A DNA stretch of 64,000 nt from Candidatus Omnitrophota bacterium (GCA_026387355.1 JAPLLW010000011.1:9504-73503); one strand, 5' to 3'. Positions 3,366-64,000 are shown, counted from the first letter of the stretch. Notes: a model not told the origin generated them from the sequence alone. Program-made: numbers and translations.

Positions 3366-4130
3366 CTAACCTGTTTGTGCCATAATAGCTGGGTACATCG
3401 TAACTGCAAACCAGCTTTTTATTTCACGAACAAATTCTTCTTTTGAGTCTTTCATCAAATACTCTGCGTGCGAACCATTCTTGATAATAACAAGCTTCTT
3501 ATTTGATTGAGTTTGCTCAAAAAGGATTTTAGAATGCCACGGCTTAACTACCCAGTCTTTCTCTCCGTGAATATAACAAACCGGAATATTTACTCTATCT
3601 ATATTATCAATTGGTTTTTGTTTTTTACGCCAGAAAACCCCTGGCCTAAAACCTCTCCCTTTTAGCCCGTCCGGAGTAAATAAGGTATACGCCAGGTCGC
3701 CCTTCAGATCTAAATTCCAGAAATTATAATCAATTTTATCGGGATCTGATGCAGCGCTTACGCAGATTAACGAATCAACTCGCTTGCCTTGCGCTAAGAA
3801 ATTAATTGCTACGCTTGCTCCCAATGAAAAGGCAATTAACCCGGTTTTCTTATATTTACCTTCTATATACTCTAGGACTGCTTTTAGATCTTTCCCTTCA
3901 TTGCTTATCCAGCTAAAAAGACCACCGCTCTTTCCATGTCCCCTAAAGTCAAACATAAATACGTCATATTCGTCAATGAGCCTGTTTTTTAACTCTTGGA
4001 GCAAAACCGCGTCTTTACTATTGTAAAACCCATGCGCAATTATAATAATCCTATCATGATTATTCAGCGCATGCTCATAAGCAATCTTCTGACTATCTTG
4101 CGTTATTAAATTACCTTTCAGTAATTTCAT
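3366..4130 (-). CDS. alpha/beta-fold hydrolase
   Basis: HGFYNS…GHGKSGG oxyanion region and the GxSxG nucleophile elbow FSLGAS. Confidence 0.7.
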   Translation of the reverse strand: MKLLKGNLITQDSQKIAYEHALNNHDRIIIIAHGFYNSKDAVLLQELKNRLIDEYDVFMFDFRGHGKSGGLFSWISNEGKDLKAVLEYIEGKYKKTGLIAFSLGASVAINFLAQGKRVDSLICVSAASDPDKIDYNFWNLDLKGDLAYTLFTPDGLKGRGFRPGVFWRKKQKPIDNIDRVNIPVCYIHGEKDWVVKPWHSKILFEQTQSNKKLVIIKNGSHAEYLMKDSKEEFVREIKSWFAVTMYPAIMAQTG

Positions 4131-4143
4131 GATAATTCCCGCG

Positions 4144-5847
4144 TTATTTATTTACCATTTCCGATACAGCTTTTCTTTTTATCTTCCGGGAAGCTGTTTT
4201 GGGAAGCTCAGCGTTCCAAATTTCAAAATCTACTATTCTTTTATAATCAGCAAGATTTTCGCTAAGGCGAGAAATATCTTTCGAGATCTTATCCTTAATC
4301 TTCTGCGCATCTGTATGCTCGCCTTGCTCAAACGCATCAAGATTAGGGACAATTACGGCATAAACCTCTTCGCAGCCTTGACGCATTCCTCTCGTAGCGA
4401 TTCTACCCAAAACACAAATCTCCTTAATTAAAGGGCTCCTACCCATCACATCTTCTACTTCTTCAGGAAATACTTTTTTTCCTGCCCCAAGTACAATCAG
4501 GTTTCTAATTCTTCCTGAAATGTATAAAAATCCGTCTTTATCAAAATATCCTAAATCGCCCGTATGAAACCAGCCGTACTTAATAACTTCCGCTGTCTTC
4601 TCAGGGCTCTGAAAATACCCTTTCATGACATGATTACCCCTGGTTAATATCTCTCCGTCTTTAGAGCTATCATTTTCTTTTAGTATTTTAACCTTTGCCC
4701 CTGGAAGCGCTTTCCCAACCGAACCAAACCTGCTCTGCTTATAAGTATTAACTGTTATAACAGGAGAGGTTTCAGTTAGGCCGTAACCTTGCAATACCCT
4801 AAAGCCTAAAGCATTAAAATTTATCTCGACATCTATATTTAATGGCGCCCCTCCGCTCATAAAGCTATGTAGTGACCCGCCGAACTGCTGTTGTACGCTC
4901 CAAAATAATAAACAGCCTATCCTAATATTAAACTTAAGCAAACTTTTTGATAAACTCAATAAGCTATTAAAGATTTTTTGCTTATACGCGGGCATCTTAG
5001 CCGCCTTATCCATAATTCCATCGTGGAGCATCTTTAATACAAGCGGCACGCAAATCATCATCACTGTGTGTGTCTCTTGCATAAGTGAAATTATGCGGGT
5101 AGGTTTTACGCTATCGCAGTATGTAATACAGGCGCCGGCATATAAAGGAGAGATAAGCCCTCCAGTTAACTCAAGCGTATGGTTTAATGGCAGGATAGAA
5201 AGAAACTGCTCGCCAATCTTATAATTGATTATTTCACTTAAGGACCTGACCTGAAACATTAAATTCCTAAAAGTAAGCTCAACGCCCTTGGCTGATCCTG
5301 TAGTACCTGAGGTATATATTATTAACGCGGTATCTTCCTCGTGTATCGGCCGGTTCTTATTTTCTTCACTGACAAGTTTCAGATCTTTTAGCTTAATTAT
5401 ATCTTGCCTCTGACTATCATCTATGACAATAACATATTTTAATTCCGGCAGATTTGTCCTTATTTTATCAATAAGCTCCAAATGCTTTTCGCTAACGAAT
5501 ATGCATTTAGTCTGGCTATTACTTAGTATAAACTGCACTTCAGCTTCACTAAGCTTAACATCTACAGGCACAACTATAGCAGCGGCACAAACAATGCCGA
5601 AAAAAGCTACTGACCATTCAGGCCTATTCTCCGAATATATTGCGATTTTGTCATCTTTAACTATACCTAATTTTATAAGATTAGAAGAAACATCAACTGT
5701 TCTCCTGCCTAATTCCACATAAGAGATTTTTCTAAATGACCCGTCTTTCTCTTTTATCTGAACGGCCGTAATGTCGCCATAATTCTTATTTATCGCCTCC
5801 ATAATATCAATTATAGTAACGGTATTTAAGCTTATTTTCTTTTTCAT
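4144..5847 (-). CDS. AMP-dependent synthetase/ligase (fatty-acyl-CoA/ACP ligase-like)
   Basis: AMP-binding motif YTSGTTGSAKGV. 567 aa. Confidence 0.8.
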   Translation of the reverse strand: MKKKISLNTVTIIDIMEAINKNYGDITAVQIKEKDGSFRKISYVELGRRTVDVSSNLIKLGIVKDDKIAIYSENRPEWSVAFFGIVCAAAIVVPVDVKLSEAEVQFILSNSQTKCIFVSEKHLELIDKIRTNLPELKYVIVIDDSQRQDIIKLKDLKLVSEENKNRPIHEEDTALIIYTSGTTGSAKGVELTFRNLMFQVRSLSEIINYKIGEQFLSILPLNHTLELTGGLISPLYAGACITYCDSVKPTRIISLMQETHTVMMICVPLVLKMLHDGIMDKAAKMPAYKQKIFNSLLSLSKSLLKFNIRIGCLLFWSVQQQFGGSLHSFMSGGAPLNIDVEINFNALGFRVLQGYGLTETSPVITVNTYKQSRFGSVGKALPGAKVKILKENDSSKDGEILTRGNHVMKGYFQSPEKTAEVIKYGWFHTGDLGYFDKDGFLYISGRIRNLIVLGAGKKVFPEEVEDVMGRSPLIKEICVLGRIATRGMRQGCEEVYAVIVPNLDAFEQGEHTDAQKIKDKISKDISRLSENLADYKRIVDFEIWNAELPKTASRKIKRKAVSEMVNK

Positions 5848-7263: not shown

Positions 7264-7335
7264 TGCCGAGGAGAAGAATCGAACTTCCCACGCCGGCCTT
7301 TTCAGGGCCGCGCTCTACCACTGAGCTACCTCGGC
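7264..7335 (-). tRNA. tRNA-Phe (anticodon GAA)
   Basis: Hand-folded cloverleaf. Acceptor GCCGAGG/CCUCGGC, D-arm GCUC…GAGC, anticodon stem CGGCC/GGCCG with loop CUGAAAA, T-arm GGAAG-UUCGAUU-CUUCU, discriminator A. No encoded CCA. Confidence 0.85.
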
Positions 7336-57625: not shown

Positions 57626-58537
57626 TTAGTTCGGTTTACTCTTCCATCTGCGGTGAATCCATCCCCATTCCGCAGGATATTTACGAATATATTCTTCTAT
57701 GATGCTGGTTAATTTCTGAATATTTATAAGAACCATTTCCTGCGCATCTTTACCCTCCTCCAGCTTTAGAGAAGGCTCAAAAATAATCTTATACATATTG
57801 TCGCCATGCCTAACAATAAAACAAGGCAAAAGCGAAGCGCCGGTACGCTGAGCAAGAATTACCGGACCGGTTGCTGTAGCAGCCTGTCTACCGAAGAAAT
57901 TTACAAACACACCCCCCGTACCAAAATTCTGGTCTATGGGAATAAAAACCAACTCGTTATTACGTAAAGCTTTTATAGTGTTATTCACGCATACATTGCG
58001 CGGCTGGCTATATATTGTTTTTACCCCAAATTTTTCTCGCTTCTCAAAAAAAATCTTCTCAACCCGAGAATCTCTCATCGGACGCATAATTCCACCCGCC
58101 TTATAACCTTCGAGTGCCAACCTTCCCAATAAAAGCGGGAAATTACCAAAATGCGCGCTAATTAATATTACTCCGTGCCCATTAGCTAAAGCACGGTCTA
58201 AATTCTCTCTACCCTCTATTACCACGCGCTCTTTTACCAGCTTAGGCCTGTCCATAAGAAACATTAACTCCACCGCTGACTTTGCTATATAAGTAAAACA
58301 GTCGCGGGCAATATCCTCTAACTCTTGCTGGGACTTCTCTTTACCAAAAGCAATACTTAAGCTTTCTAAAGCAATCTTACGCTGCTTTCCGGCAAAACGA
58401 TACGCCAAGGAACCTATCCCCTGGGCAAAACCATACAAAAACTGTGTCGGAATAAGCTTAATTATCAAAGAACAGAGGATTAAACCTAGCCATCCTGCGA
58501 AACGACCAATACTTTTACGTATTTTTTTAAAATCCAT
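57626..58537 (-). CDS. lipid A biosynthesis (Kdo2-lipid IVA) acyltransferase, LpxL/HtrB family
   Basis: N-terminal TM. AHFGNFP (HX4D-like) motif. About 300 aa. Confidence 0.75.
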   Translation of the reverse strand: MDFKKIRKSIGRFAGWLGLILCSLIIKLIPTQFLYGFAQGIGSLAYRFAGKQRKIALESLSIAFGKEKSQQELEDIARDCFTYIAKSAVELMFLMDRPKLVKERVVIEGRENLDRALANGHGVILISAHFGNFPLLLGRLALEGYKAGGIMRPMRDSRVEKIFFEKREKFGVKTIYSQPRNVCVNNTIKALRNNELVFIPIDQNFGTGGVFVNFFGRQAATATGPVILAQRTGASLLPCFIVRHGDNMYKIIFEPSLKLEEGKDAQEMVLINIQKLTSIIEEYIRKYPAEWGWIHRRWKSKPN

Positions 58538-58588: not shown

Positions 58589-59074
58589 TTATAGCTTATA
58601 TCCGATTTTACGCAAGAATTCTTTACGCCAGATAAGATCGGCTTCATCTTCAACGCCTTTTGGCCGAGCACCGTCAATTACACCCAATATTCCGTTACCT
58701 TGCTCTGTCTGAACCACAACAACCTTAAGCAAATTAGCAGTTGCGCAGTATATATTACATACCTCTGGGATATTCTTAATGGCATTGAGAATATTTATCG
58801 GAAAGGCATTACGCATACAGATTACAAAACTATGCCCCGCGCTTATTTCAAGGCAATTATCCACAGCTACTTTTTTAAGCTCAGGATCATTACCCTCAAC
58901 CCTCACCTTACAGGCGCCGCTAGCCTCCGCAAAAGCTATGCCAAATTTTATACCAGGGACATTATTTACTAAAACTTCATAGATATCTTCTACGCTTTTA
59001 ATAAAATGGCTCTGCCCTAAAATTAGATTAACATCTTCTGGTTTTTTTATCTCGATCAGTTTTAACTCTAACAT
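58589..59074 (-). CDS. adenosine-specific-kinase-family (PF04008/DUF355-like) protein, tentative
   Basis: 161 aa. …GHSFVICMRNAFPINILNAIKNIPEV… resembles that family. Low certainty. Confidence 0.35.
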   Translation of the reverse strand: MLELKLIEIKKPEDVNLILGQSHFIKSVEDIYEVLVNNVPGIKFGIAFAEASGACKVRVEGNDPELKKVAVDNCLEISAGHSFVICMRNAFPINILNAIKNIPEVCNIYCATANLLKVVVVQTEQGNGILGVIDGARPKGVEDEADLIWRKEFLRKIGYKL

Positions 59075-59088
59075 CAGATCCTCCCGCT

Positions 59089-60483
59089 TTATTTTATAAC
59101 GATCTCCCTAAATCCAGTTGCATCTACAGGAAGCCTTCCACTATAAGCCTTTAGCGAAGTAAGTATTAAGCCAGGGTCACCTAATAAGGTAAGCGGGATA
59201 TGCACAACTACTTCCTCGGAATCCGTGTCCAAAAGAAACCCTACCGGTGATGCTACTTTCTTTTTCCCGTCATAAATTCTGTGCTTCTTACCTTTAATAA
59301 GAATGCGTATTTTAGGCATAGAGGAAAATGGGACTTTATCATTATAACCAAAGACATAAAGCATAAAGCTTAAGCCCTTGATTGACTTCTTAGTTTTATC
59401 AACACGTATAACTAAACAATGATCCACAATAGCATAGCCTACTTCACCCTGACCCTCTATGAAGCTATCACGAGAAAGCATCCCCTCATCTTCCGAATCT
59501 TCAAAGATACGCGTAGAACCGAAGAACTCCGGAGCTTTTTCTTTCAAAGAAGCCTGCCTGGCTAATTCAATCTGCGGATAGTTACCGAATAATTCATTTT
59601 TGCGGGCAAAGGCTAAAAGATAAAAAGCATGCGAAGCAGTCTGACTTCTATAGCAGAGTATTGCCTGATGCTTTTTCTCTAACTCCTCTGGGGTTAAATT
59701 GGATTTTAACCAGCTCGCCTGGGAATCTAGAAAGTTTTTCGGAGGCACTAAATCTAGTTCGGGATGATAATGTCGCGGTTTGGGCCAACCCACGCAATGT
59801 ATCAAATAAGGATAAACCTTTACAGGAGAAATCTGCTTATTTAAATCGAGTAAAGCCACTCTTAAAAAAAGATAGAATGTTTTATGATCTAAGTTTACAT
59901 CGGCAGGATGAGAGACAAGAATCTTGGTAGGCTTATAATCAAGGAGGATCTTTTTTAAATCATTCAGAATACTCTCTCCGACGTAAGGTGAACCGAAAGA
60001 TAAATCATTCTTATAAGGAACGCTGGATGTGCGTGTAAGTAAATTCCTAAATGGCTTATCTGTCTGCCAAAATTGACTAAATATCGTAAATGTTCCAAAA
60101 TCTGGATACCCAAGAAAGATAAGATCCCGCTCATTTAAGCCTAATAACTTCATGGCATTAATCGCTTCTTTGCAACGTAGCTGCCCCATGTGAAGAAACT
60201 CTCCTTTTCTAAAGGTGAGCCTTTTTTCATATACGATAAATGCTAACTCATTGTGATCACTATTAGTTAAATAAACTATCTTTACTTGAGCGCCTGCTGA
60301 AAGTGCATGTTGGATCACACCGGCTCCCCCTATAGCCTCATCGTCCGGATGAGGAGCTAATATAAGGATGCGGTCGGTTTTCTGGAAAGCTTCTATATCC
60401 GGAATATCTTGAGCATAAATAGATACTCTTGCCAGGATAATTGCAAGAAATGTTAATAATAAAGCTGGATATTTCTTTAGCAT
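59089..60483 (-). CDS. exported PIG-L/LmbE-family N-deacetylase with an extra ~230-aa C-terminal domain
   Basis: Signal peptide. ILAPHPDDEAIGGAG (PIG-L zinc motif). Confidence 0.7.
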   Translation of the reverse strand: MLKKYPALLLTFLAIILARVSIYAQDIPDIEAFQKTDRILILAPHPDDEAIGGAGVIQHALSAGAQVKIVYLTNSDHNELAFIVYEKRLTFRKGEFLHMGQLRCKEAINAMKLLGLNERDLIFLGYPDFGTFTIFSQFWQTDKPFRNLLTRTSSVPYKNDLSFGSPYVGESILNDLKKILLDYKPTKILVSHPADVNLDHKTFYLFLRVALLDLNKQISPVKVYPYLIHCVGWPKPRHYHPELDLVPPKNFLDSQASWLKSNLTPEELEKKHQAILCYRSQTASHAFYLLAFARKNELFGNYPQIELARQASLKEKAPEFFGSTRIFEDSEDEGMLSRDSFIEGQGEVGYAIVDHCLVIRVDKTKKSIKGLSFMLYVFGYNDKVPFSSMPKIRILIKGKKHRIYDGKKKVASPVGFLLDTDSEEVVVHIPLTLLGDPGLILTSLKAYSGRLPVDATGFREIVIK

Positions 60484-60537: not shown

Positions 60538-62580
60538 CTATTGCAAATACTCCAAAGGATCTTGAGGGATATTGTTTTTTTCTATTTCAAAATGTAAATG
60601 GGATTGCATATCCTTATAGTTGGCATTCCCGGTCTTCCCTACCGCACCAATGACATCACCCTGACGGACAATCTTGTTTTTTGTAACCAGAATCTGTGAG
60701 AGGTGCCCATATATAGTTACTAAGCTTGGGCTATGCCTAATAATAATATATTTGCCCATACCGCGGTTCCTATTGGCCTGAATGACTATTCCTGAACGCA
60801 CGGCTAAAACCGGTGTGCCTATCTTGGCAAAAAGGTCTATCCCCTCATGCATACGCCTACCGCTACGATTAGTGCCGAAAAATCCATCCCCCCTGGCATC
60901 AGAACGGATAATTAAGTCGCCGCTATAATTTATCGGAGAAATAAAATAATATTTATCCGCAAAATAAAAGACAAAAGCGGAATAGATTGTTAAGATTAAT
61001 AAAAAGACTAACAATACCTTCTTTGCCAAATTCTTATGTAAAGCAAAGATAAATAAATACAATAAACAGAGTAAACATATAACAATTAGGAAATCTCCGT
61101 GATTACTATAAAAAGATGCTTGTCCGCGAATAAAGATATTTTGGGTTTTAAACCCCGGGACAAATATCAGATTTCCAAACTCATCGTGCACCGAAGAAAT
61201 TATCCTGCCTTGAGGATTAATAAATCCAGAGATCCCTGTATTGGCAGAGCGCACCAGATACACCCTATTCTCAACCGCACGAAATACCGAACCTGCCAGA
61301 TGTTGAGATGCTTCAGTGGTCTTGCCAAACCAAGCATCATTAGTGATGTTGATTAAGAAATCTGCACCCTTATTCACGAAATTTCTAGCTAAATTAGGAA
61401 AAACATCCTCAAAACAAATCAATGTTCCGAATTGAAAATATCTACCTGATAAATAAACTTGTCTTCCGGAGTTTAAAACCGGGGCCGCTATCTTCTGGCT
61501 ACGAATTTTAAATAATGTATAGTATTTCCCTCTTGTAATATCGCCTATAGGAGCAATTGTATCTAAAAACTTTAAGATATTCCTAAAAGGTATGTACTCA
61601 CCAAAAGGGACAAGATGCAACTTATCATACCTTCCCAATAAAATACCTTCTCCTGAAGCCATAAGCGCACTATTATAATAAGAGTCTAGTCGACAAGTAA
61701 CCGCTCCAAATACTAAGGGCTTGCCTATTGTTTTAATAAACCGGCTTAACTTCCCATAGTAAACAGGTTCCTCCTCAGGAATGACCGGAAACGAAGCCTC
61801 TGGCCAGATAATTAAATCCGGATTATCCTTTCTTGCTTCAACAGTTAATTTAAAATACCTCTCCATAATAAATTCCCTGGAGCTCTCCTCCCACTTACGT
61901 TCCTGGGGGATATTCCCTTGGATAACAGATATTTTTAACGGAATTCCTGACAAGCCCTGATTCAACCTTAGGTATCCATAAGCAAAAACAGCTACTAGTA
62001 GAACAATAATTAAAGACGAATACAGTTTGCGCTTGCCTAAAATCATCTCCTGGATAACTACATTAATCAGCACTACCAAAAATGATACCAACCATACCCC
62101 TGCAATATCCGCAATCTGAATAAGTGTCAAATTAAGATACTGCGAATAGCCTAATAAAGCCCAGGGGAAACCGGAAAAAAGATGGCTGCGCAAATACTCC
62201 AGCATAACCCAGAGAGTTGGTATAAAAAGTATGCGCAGTTTAATTGATGGTCTGGATATTAGAAACCCGAAAACCCCGAAGTAACAGGCGAGATAAAAAA
62301 TCAAAATAATCTGACCTAATAATGTTACATGAATTAACCAGTATAAAGTAGCTGTCCAAAATATAACTCCTGCAAGATAAGAAATAAGAAACGCTTTTTT
62401 TCCGCTTTGATACTTCAGCGCAAAAAATAAAGGGATAAACCCAAACCATGCCAAAATCCATAATTTTCCAAAAGAAAATGGAACGGCTAATAGGACCGCA
62501 GAAAAAATAGCTAGTATTATGCTTTTTACTATAGGTTGTTGTTGACTATAGAGTATTGGCGCTTTCATTTTCCGCAACAT
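60538..62580 (-). CDS. lnt: apolipoprotein N-acyltransferase fused through two extra TM helices to a C-terminal M23 (LytM-type) metallopeptidase domain
   Basis: Lnt: TM-rich N-terminus. CN-hydrolase catalytic Cys in TLICFE. NDAWFG. M23: HEGID (HxxxD) and HLHFE (HxH). Confidence 0.8.
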
Positions 62581-64000
62581 TTTTTATATTTTTTACCGGA
62601 TCCGCAGGGGCAGGGATCATTTCGTCCGACTTTAGGGTGGGATAATTTTACTGTTTTAACAACTGCCTCCTGCGGAGAAGATAAATCTTGGGCGTCAAAC
62701 TTCTCTACAGGAGCCTGTAAACCGCTAACTTCAGGATGCGTTAGTTCCTGACGCACAGTACTAAATACACCCTTAAATCTTTCCGGATGCACCGACTCCA
62801 ATTTAAAGATCGCCTCAATCGCATCTTCTTCAATAGCCGCAACCATCTGACTGAACATACCAAATGCCTCACGCTTATATTCAACTAAAGGATCGCGCTG
62901 GCCATAGGCGCGTAAACCTATTCCTTCGCGCAGACTATCCATTGCATAAAGATGATCCTTCCATTTAGCATCAATAATCTGCAAGAATACCATGCGCTCA
63001 AGATGACGCATTAAATCCGTACCAAAAGACTTCTCTTTTTCTTCGTAAATCTTAAAAGCGCTACTAATTAACTCTTCTTTTAAATCTGACTTAGATAAGC
63101 TACTCATTTTCTCAGCCTCAAGCTCTATGCCAAATTTTGCCCTTACTACAGCAATAAAGCCTTGTAGATCTGGTTCAGAGCCAGTTGAGTTTTCTGCAAA
63201 ATATATACTGGTAAGATTATCAACTACTCCGTCGACTATCTCAATTATTCTCTCTTTGAGAGAAATACCCTCTAAGATTTGACGACGCTGGCCATAGATT
63301 ATTTCTCTCTGTTTATTCATTACATTATCGTATTCCAGGAGTTGTTTTCTAATCTCAAAGTTATGCTGTTCAACACGGCGCTGTGCAATCTCGATAGAGC
63401 GGCTAACCCAGGGATGCTCGATAGCCTGGCCTTCCTCTAAACCTAATTTATCCATAATACCGATAAGCCGATCAGATCCGAACAAGCGCATCAGATCATC
63501 GCCTAAAGAAACGTAGAATCTTGAAGAGCCAGGGTCACCCTGGCGCCCGCACCTACCGCGCAACTGATTATCAATCCTGCGCGCCTCATGCCGTTCAGTC
63601 CCTAAAACATGCAAACCTCCTAAGCCTACTACTTTTTCATGTTCTGTGCTAGTCTCGCTCTTATATTTATCAAACAGCTTATGATATTCTGCTTGATAAT
63701 TCGGATCCTGCAGATCTAACTTCTGTCTAGCGACATTCTTAGACATAAACTCAGGATTACCGCCTAATAAAATATCCGTACCGCGGCCAGCCATATTTGT
63801 AGCAATGGTTATGCCTTTGTATCTACCGGCTTGAGCAACAATTTGCGCCTCTGTCTCGTGATATTTAGCATTGAGCACCTGATGCGTTATGCCCCGGCGT
63901 TTCAACATCTCAGAAAGAAGTTCTGATTTCTCTATTGAAATTGTACCTACCAAAACTGGCCTCCCGGCACTATAAAGCTCTGAGATCTCGTTTACCACAG
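62565..64000 (-). CDS. secA: preprotein translocase ATPase SecA, C-terminal ~480 aa (5' end beyond the window)
   Basis: Helical scaffold/wing domains. C-terminal zinc finger [14 protein letters not shown]. Confidence 0.9.

Follow-up and report, generated by a model that had tools for sequence, protein, structure and literature searches.

Does an open reading frame that runs from apolipoprotein N-acyltransferase (Lnt) straight into an M23 metallopeptidase encode one bifunctional membrane protein and, if so, how did it arise, and does the union imply that the two halves work together? The question is raised by a locus in a 64,000-nt stretch of DNA from Candidatus Omnitrophota bacterium (GCA_026387355.1 JAPLLW010000011.1:9504-73503), referred to here as the window. 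A sequence-only reading of the window had proposed a complete Lnt continued, by way of two extra helices, into a periplasmic M23 domain with intact zinc motifs. The complete Lnt and the M23 domain with intact residues, predicted to face the periplasm, were upheld by the analysis below, whereas the number of helices and the account of the origin had to be revised.

Architecture of the fused protein

The positions of the gene, its parts and its neighbours are collected in Table 1. Pfam recognises LNT_N at aa 27-174 (E = 1e-36) and CN_hydrolase at aa 217-467 (5e-25), both above gathering, as well as Peptidase_M23 at aa 576-675 (105.1 bits vs. a gathering threshold of 28.7, 2e-30), the latter along the entire profile (positions 1-96 of 96). 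On the same frame, the lnt equivalog of NCBIfam, TIGR00546, reaches 338.9 bits (cutoff, 132.9). Thus, the single 680-aa frame, Pfam and TIGR00546 agree that a complete Lnt is followed by the M23 part with no stop between them, as had been claimed, and the motifs quoted in support of that claim are found in place: TLICFE at aa 386-391 (including C389, codon 61414-61416) and NDAWFG at aa 414-419 in the Lnt half, HEGID at aa 578-582 and HLHFE at aa 661-665 in the M23 half, where YGHL is also found at aa 624-627. Met5, at 62568, is an alternative start and is the one used in the 676-aa protein P0001. The nearest relatives carry the names Candidatus Omnitrophota or Omnitrophica.

Table 1 Features of the lnt::m23 gene and of the genes next to it (window coordinates)
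Feature	Residues	Position	Strand	Remarks
Whole lnt::m23 ORF	680 aa	60538..62580	-	stop codon 60538-60540; uninterrupted
Lnt membrane domain, TM1-TM7	aa ~17-206	61963..62532	-	Pfam, hydropathy, AF2 helices, superposition on E. coli Lnt
Periplasmic nitrilase-like (CN_hydrolase) domain of Lnt	aa ~213-484	61129..61944	-	triad E261, K320, C389
TM8, canonical last Lnt helix	aa 497-514	61039..61092	-	periplasm to cytoplasm; hydropathy, AF2, profile alignment
Fusion junction, short cytoplasmic loop HKNLAKK	aa 515-521	61018..61038	-	three Lys
TM9, only added helix	aa 522-540	60961..61017	-	predicted cytoplasm to periplasm; former signal-anchor of standalone M23 protein
M23 metallopeptidase domain, predicted periplasmic	aa 541-680 (Pfam 576-675)	60541..60960	-	
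M23 residues H578xxxD582		60835-60849	-	
M23 residue H626		60703-60705	-	
M23 residues H661xH663		60592-60600	-	
secA, 3' part		62565..63998	-	cut by window end
PIG-L family deacetylase		59089-60483	-	directly after lnt::m23
Adenosine_kin family protein		58589-59074	-	
Lip_A_acyltrans family acyltransferase		57626-58537	-	

Topology and structure model

Crystal structures of Lnt show eight transmembrane helices and a nitrilase-like domain that bridges H7 and H8; the N- and C-terminus of the E. coli enzyme both lie on the cytoplasmic side (PMC5500888). The same eight-helix arrangement, in which the nitrilase-like domain is inserted after TM7 and before TM8, is predicted for the Lnt half of the window protein by hydropathy, AF2 and Foldseek. 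In the AF2 model of the fused protein (mean pLDDT 84.2, pTM 0.72), the Lnt half is superimposed by Foldseek on 8B0L/5N6M (target-normalised TM-score 0.82, ~510 residues), and a helical hairpin is formed by aa 497-514 and 516-539, the second helix being placed at 522-540 by hydropathy. Of this hairpin, which had been taken for two extra helices, only TM9 is new. The helix at aa 497-514 is TM8 of Lnt itself: in the alignment, unfused Omnitrophota Lnts stop just past TM8 and a short basic tail, which rules out two added helices, and an HMM of unfused Lnts aligns to the window ORF with nodes 6-505 of 509, reaching aa 514. The topological need for a further crossing to reach the periplasm stands, although one helix is required for it rather than two.

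From the cytoplasmic C-terminus of Lnt, the Lys-rich seven-residue loop and one more helix, the M23 domain is predicted to be extracytoplasmic. Neither a lipobox nor an AxA signal-peptidase site was found in TM9, so that its reading as a lipoprotein signal or a cleavable signal was rejected and TM9 should stay as an anchor. The M23 domain begins only ~6-8 residues past TM9, where the sequence D-K-x-Y-F-x-C/S-P is conserved; the domain would thus be held near the membrane surface.

As a separate observation, an extra loop of the nitrilase-like domain at aa ~365-382 (window ~61435-61488), modelled with pLDDT below 50, is present in only part of the fused clade (the window, P0001-P0003 and P0005) and is missing from E. 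coli Lnt and from most relatives.

Origin from an overlapping gene pair

A search with aa 515-680 alone, the listing of which did not contain the fused proteins, returned a large family of ~162-aa proteins (P0121-P0240 listed) that are 60-72% identical to the query over 84-99% of its length, the transmembrane helix included, and whose annotation goes no further than M23 or MepM/NlpD-like. In all five standalone proteins examined (P0161, P0122 and P0140, plus P0175 and P0211, which were picked without regard to Lnt), the m23 gene follows an unfused lnt directly on the 3' side, its start sharing 4 bp with the lnt stop (ATGA). The loci with this 4-bp lnt/m23 overlap are L003-L009, L093 and L094, and likewise the species representative L012; the unfused junction reads ...FKNRKKK, stop / MKKALLFLLLIFTIY... 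Lack of an adjacent M23 gene in unfused relatives, as suggested by L002, where an MFS gene is found at that place, was overturned by the module-only search.

An HMM of the standalone M23 proteins aligns to the window ORF with nodes 2-162 of 162 and, together with the HMM of unfused Lnts, spans the ORF, that is, two whole proteins are joined. The window protein thus consists of two complete proteins placed end to end, minus a few residues of the Lnt tail and the initiator Met of the M23 protein. The HKNLAKK loop combines the basic Lnt tail with the old M23 N-terminus 'MKK', whose Met has become Ala519. The sequence-only reading had missed this origin: the M23 part with its helix is a pre-existing 162-aa membrane-anchored protein encoded after lnt.

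One residue before the old M23 start, the window gene has a TTG codon (L518, 61027-61029; TTG GCA AAG AAG vs. ATG AAA AAG). Some separate M23 product may be made by internal initiation at TTG518.

Conservation of the catalytic residues

The Lnt triad E261 (in WPEA), K320 and C389 (in LICFE) aligns with E267/K335/C387 of E. coli Lnt and is invariant in 121/121 relatives. All five M23 residues are present as well, namely, the zinc ligands H578, D582 and H663 and the catalytic histidines H626 and H661, and they are invariant in 137/137 members of the family, fused and standalone. The motifs line up with those of the active PDB M23 enzymes 9gy1 and 3slu. Loss of zinc ligands on proper alignment had been named in advance as a finding that would speak against a peptidase; compared with the active enzymes, all of them are intact.

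All named M23 equivalogs of NCBIfam score far under their cutoffs on the window protein (MepM, 63.8 vs. 341 bits; ShyC, 62.7 vs. 700; ShyA, 53.8 vs. 700), so that family assignment does not define the M23 substrate. Judged by these scores, the window M23 domain is not an orthologue of MepM, ShyA or ShyC, though it may act similarly.

Recurrence and distribution of the fusion

The database search for the architecture that had been proposed as a check yielded sixteen further 90%-identity clusters with the same three domains, at 51-99% identity (JGI, NCBI, ENA and Logan); the junction sequences have diverged among the fused clusters, with the reading frame kept. In a neighbour-joining (NJ) tree built on the Lnt part, the window and P0001-P0011 form a fused clade that also draws in the unfused P0017 (bootstrap 69/100 with P0017, 35/100 without it), whereas the nearest neighbours of P0012, P0013, P0014 and P0015/P0016 are unfused. 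Monophyly of all fused proteins was recovered in 0/100 NJ bootstraps, and a single origin of all fusions was rejected accordingly. The junctions themselves differ in what became of the old start Met. It is kept in frame in P0014 (AAG ATG AAA AAA) and in P0016 (ACT ATG AAA AAA), replaced by Ala in the window (GCA AAG AAG), in P0003 (GCC AAA AAG) and in P0012 (GCA CGC AAG), and replaced by Val in P0013 (residues I-V-K-K). At least three or four independent fusion events seem to have occurred, the exact number being uncertain with simple NJ trees of about 486 columns; P0012 may share the fusion event of the core clade, given that Ala stands for the old Met in both.

Adjacency of the two genes is confined to part of the phylum. 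Among 80 species-representative lnt loci, M23 is adjacent in 3 (L011, L012 and L014, the closest ones) and fused in none; at the other 77, from Nitrospirota, Desulfobacterota and more distant Omnitrophota among others, no M23 was found within ~3.5 kb of lnt. A phylum-wide lnt-M23 linkage was rejected on these counts. Two close relatives of the window also have no adjacent M23 gene: at the lnt locus of P0019 (L002) the MFS gene takes its place, and in P0017 another gene comes next. The lnt-M23 link is therefore not obligatory, and the M23 module was probably lost secondarily in some relatives within the larger clade of the window. When a junction-spanning query was run against 1.84 billion representatives, the only end-to-end matches among those listed (at least ~121 bits) came from this clade (P0003 and the fragment P0241), with no Lnt-M23 fusion from outside it; the other long matches listed were BlaR1(M56)-M23, multi-M23, Lnt-SNase and Lnt-TPR proteins.

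Other C-terminal extensions of Lnt

Related bacteria encode Lnt proteins with unrelated C-terminal modules: P0271 is an Lnt-SNase protein (Pfam PF00565) and P0323 an Lnt-TPR protein. Lnt fusions are also seen at L023 (~3434-5564), L029 (~3482-5531), L033 (~3497-5558) and L013 (~3497-5708). In L023 and L013, the Lnt frame continues into an apparent lipoprotein signal peptide with a lipobox (...LILALILTSALSSC/TSDEE in L023 and ...ISSVLYGC/DSGQ in L013), and, if real, these two fusions could be separated post-translationally by signal peptidase II. The tails of L023, L029 and L033 are nuclease-like and, by sequence likeness, resemble the SNase part of P0271.

Genomic neighbourhood

The stop of secA and the start of lnt overlap by 16 nt in the window (62565-62580), as they do in L001 (6001-6016) and L003 (4499-4514), and this conserved overlap suggests that the expression of secA, lnt and m23 is coupled. 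The gene order prfB-secA-lnt(-m23)-PIG-L-Adenosine_kin-Lip_A_acyltrans is common to fused and unfused genomes. In a scan for promoters and terminators, counts equalled the shuffle expectation.

Several details of the surroundings were recorded in passing. The PIG-L deacetylase of the window (464 aa) has a signal-like hydrophobic segment at its N-terminus, its Pfam domain spans aa 40-209 only, and its last ~250 residues match no family. At many related loci, a CDF gene (Cation_efflux plus ZT_dimer) on the opposite strand lies just past the M23 gene or past an intervening MFS gene (L003, 6512-7387; L004, 6504-7373; L007, 6850-7731; L090, 4436-5317; L091, 3826-4704; L093, 6632-7495; L094, 6599-7528). 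This gene adjoins the zinc peptidase in the relatives and is not present in the window, where PIG-L comes next. At the gathering threshold, Rfam gave a single match in the whole 64-kb window, a tRNA at 7264-7335 (-).

Weighing the alternatives

A frame that joins two otherwise overlapping genes could be the product of a sequencing or assembly error that erased the stop and shifted the frame, in which case two separate genes would be present. The ancestral junction is A-rich (AAAAAATGAAAAAG), and one inserted base would join the frames; moreover, a few singleton fusions elsewhere (P0013, P0014) are supported by one contig each. The junction of the window, however, reads CAT AAG AAT TTG GCA AAG AAG GTA and contains no homopolymer, no ATG and no in-frame stop. 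An independent assembly from a different run (L095, Logan SRR12676968) aligns to the window without a gap (98.9% identity, 5,948 nt) and has the identical frame. Within the lnt::m23 gene the two differ by 39 substitutions, eight of them non-synonymous, and by no indel; in aa 515-680 all ten substitutions are synonymous, and the fused gene is under purifying selection. The frame is also kept, despite differing junctions, in twelve diverged proteins of the fused clade to which the window belongs (63-99% identity; JGI, NCBI, ENA and Logan). The check for a frameshift or assembly join that had been called for thus found none and, with an independent assembly and a diverged fused clade in agreement, the error reading was rejected; for the window it is effectively refuted, and we give it next to no credence. 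If the protein is genuine, its M23 domain could conceivably be a non-catalytic LytM-type regulator tethered to Lnt, that is, an amidase activator like EnvC, NlpD or DipM, as the sequence-only reading had allowed. Weak similarity to the NCBIfam models of DipM, ActS, NlpD and EnvC is indeed detected, and the PDB matches include DipM and EnvC. These scores are, however, far under the cutoffs (DipM, 72 vs. 740; NlpD, 41 vs. 311; EnvC, 32 vs. 270), and neither a LysM nor a coiled-coil domain was found by Pfam in the window protein. Furthermore, H578, D582, H626, H661 and H663, invariant throughout the family, are intact, whereas DipM, in the same alignment, has N/N/Q at the equivalent positions and has lost the set. 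A regulatory role is, in our judgment, very improbable.

A further possibility is that Lnt and M23 make up a functionally coupled machine which acts on a common or linked substrate, the fusion reflecting an obligate complex. The peptidase might, for instance, cleave nascent peptidoglycan or lipid-linked precursors near the membrane at the sites of lipoprotein release, or it might process lipoproteins, whether free or attached to peptidoglycan. Several observations point in this direction: the tight pairing of lnt and m23, with the 4-bp overlap in 5/5 cases, even where the upstream context differs (L093); the apparently repeated, independent origin of the fusion; and the very short linker that tethers M23 at the membrane surface next to the domain with the Lnt active site. 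Against it, the pairing is restricted to a sublineage (77/80 species-representative lnt loci, many of them from Omnitrophota, have no M23 within 3.5 kb) and was lost in some close relatives; overlapping genes of compatible topology can fuse neutrally; and Lnt is also joined to unrelated downstream modules (SNase, TPR), which is indicative of opportunistic fusion. An obligate complex therefore seems to us rather unlikely, and neutral fusion of overlapping genes adequately explains lnt::m23.

Discussion

The interpretation that we consider probable is that of a bifunctional, nine-helix inner-membrane protein, merged from overlapping genes, in which Lnt and a tethered M23 peptidase keep their ancestral activities. 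Under this interpretation, aa 1-514 would constitute a complete Lnt that, like the E. coli enzyme, provides lipoproteins with their third acyl chain; past the seven-residue Lys-rich cytoplasmic loop, TM9 would return the chain across the membrane and keep a minimal, catalytically competent M23 zinc metallopeptidase at the periplasmic face, beside the Lnt catalytic domain. The ancestral state would have been a translationally coupled pair, lnt followed by a 162-aa signal-anchor-M23 gene with the ATGA overlap, which merged into one frame. Topology allowed the merger, since the C-terminus of Lnt and the N-terminus of the M23 protein both lie on the cytoplasmic side. It would have fixed a 1:1 stoichiometry and the co-localisation of proteins that were already co-expressed and, maybe, already associated. 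We infer that both halves retain their ancestral activities, the most likely role of the M23 half being that of a LytU- or MepM-like endopeptidase that cleaves peptidoglycan close to the membrane.

The Lnt half has the eight-helix domain, the nitrilase-like domain and the E-K-C triad in common with the Lnt enzymes of E. coli and P. aeruginosa (5N6H, 5N6M, 8B0L), at about 25% identity and with the TM-score given above; unlike E. coli Lnt, the window protein carries a ninth helix and a 140-aa M23 peptidase past TM8. As for the M23 half, an N-terminal transmembrane anchor in LytU and MepM keeps the M23 domain tethered on the outer side of the cytoplasmic membrane. The complete HxxxD / H / HxH set is found in S. 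aureus LytU (5KQB/5KQC) and E. coli MepM, as it is in the window M23. The similarity is nevertheless weak (E = 1e-4 to LytU; 64 bits with the MepM equivalog, cutoff 341), and the window protein differs from both in having no LysM/OapA-type domain and in having its anchor helix joined to Lnt. The standalone Omnitrophota proteins P0121-P0240 consist of the same helix and M23 domain as polypeptides of their own, with an ATG overlapping the lnt stop.

A precedent for the mode of origin is Ppm1 of M. tuberculosis (Rv2051c), in which Lnt is fused to a polyprenol-monophosphomannose synthase, the two being separate in M. smegmatis (MSMEG_3860/3859) (PMC3850990). There, too, the Lnt C-terminus is joined to the product of a former downstream neighbour gene; in the window, by comparison, Lnt is joined to a zinc peptidase, predicted to lie in the periplasm, which comes with its own signal-anchor helix. 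The Ppm1 partner is a cytoplasmic glycosyltransferase, hence no extra helix is needed. More generally, the cytoplasmic C-terminus of Lnt readily takes up downstream genes that start with a signal anchor or a signal peptide. No paper describing Lnt and M23 as fused or paired turned up in full-text searches, in line with the sequence-only reading, which knew of none. In Lnt-M23, two familiar enzyme families are thus combined in a new way, by an evolutionary route of a known type. In practical terms, the annotation of such proteins should be bifunctional rather than 'apolipoprotein N-acyltransferase' alone, the only name given, for example, to P0012, an NCBI MAG protein with this architecture.

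Both Lnt and the M23 peptidases are well understood enzymes, and no link between the two is known to have been described. A conserved, coupled and repeatedly fused lnt-m23 pair is a 'Rosetta stone' hint of joint or side-by-side work. That the two form a dedicated unit, in which the substrate of the peptidase lies near the membrane and is tied to the maturation of lipoproteins, we think unlikely, with only a small chance of being right. If it were true, the candidate substrates would be nascent or lipid-linked peptidoglycan at the hand-over of triacylated lipoproteins, or peptidoglycan-linked lipoproteins, and the repeated fusions would record a physical and functional coupling of lipoprotein biogenesis and cell-wall remodelling. 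The envelope biology of the Omnitrophota, an uncultured phylum, is almost unknown, and the lnt-m23 pair offers a hint that is testable there.
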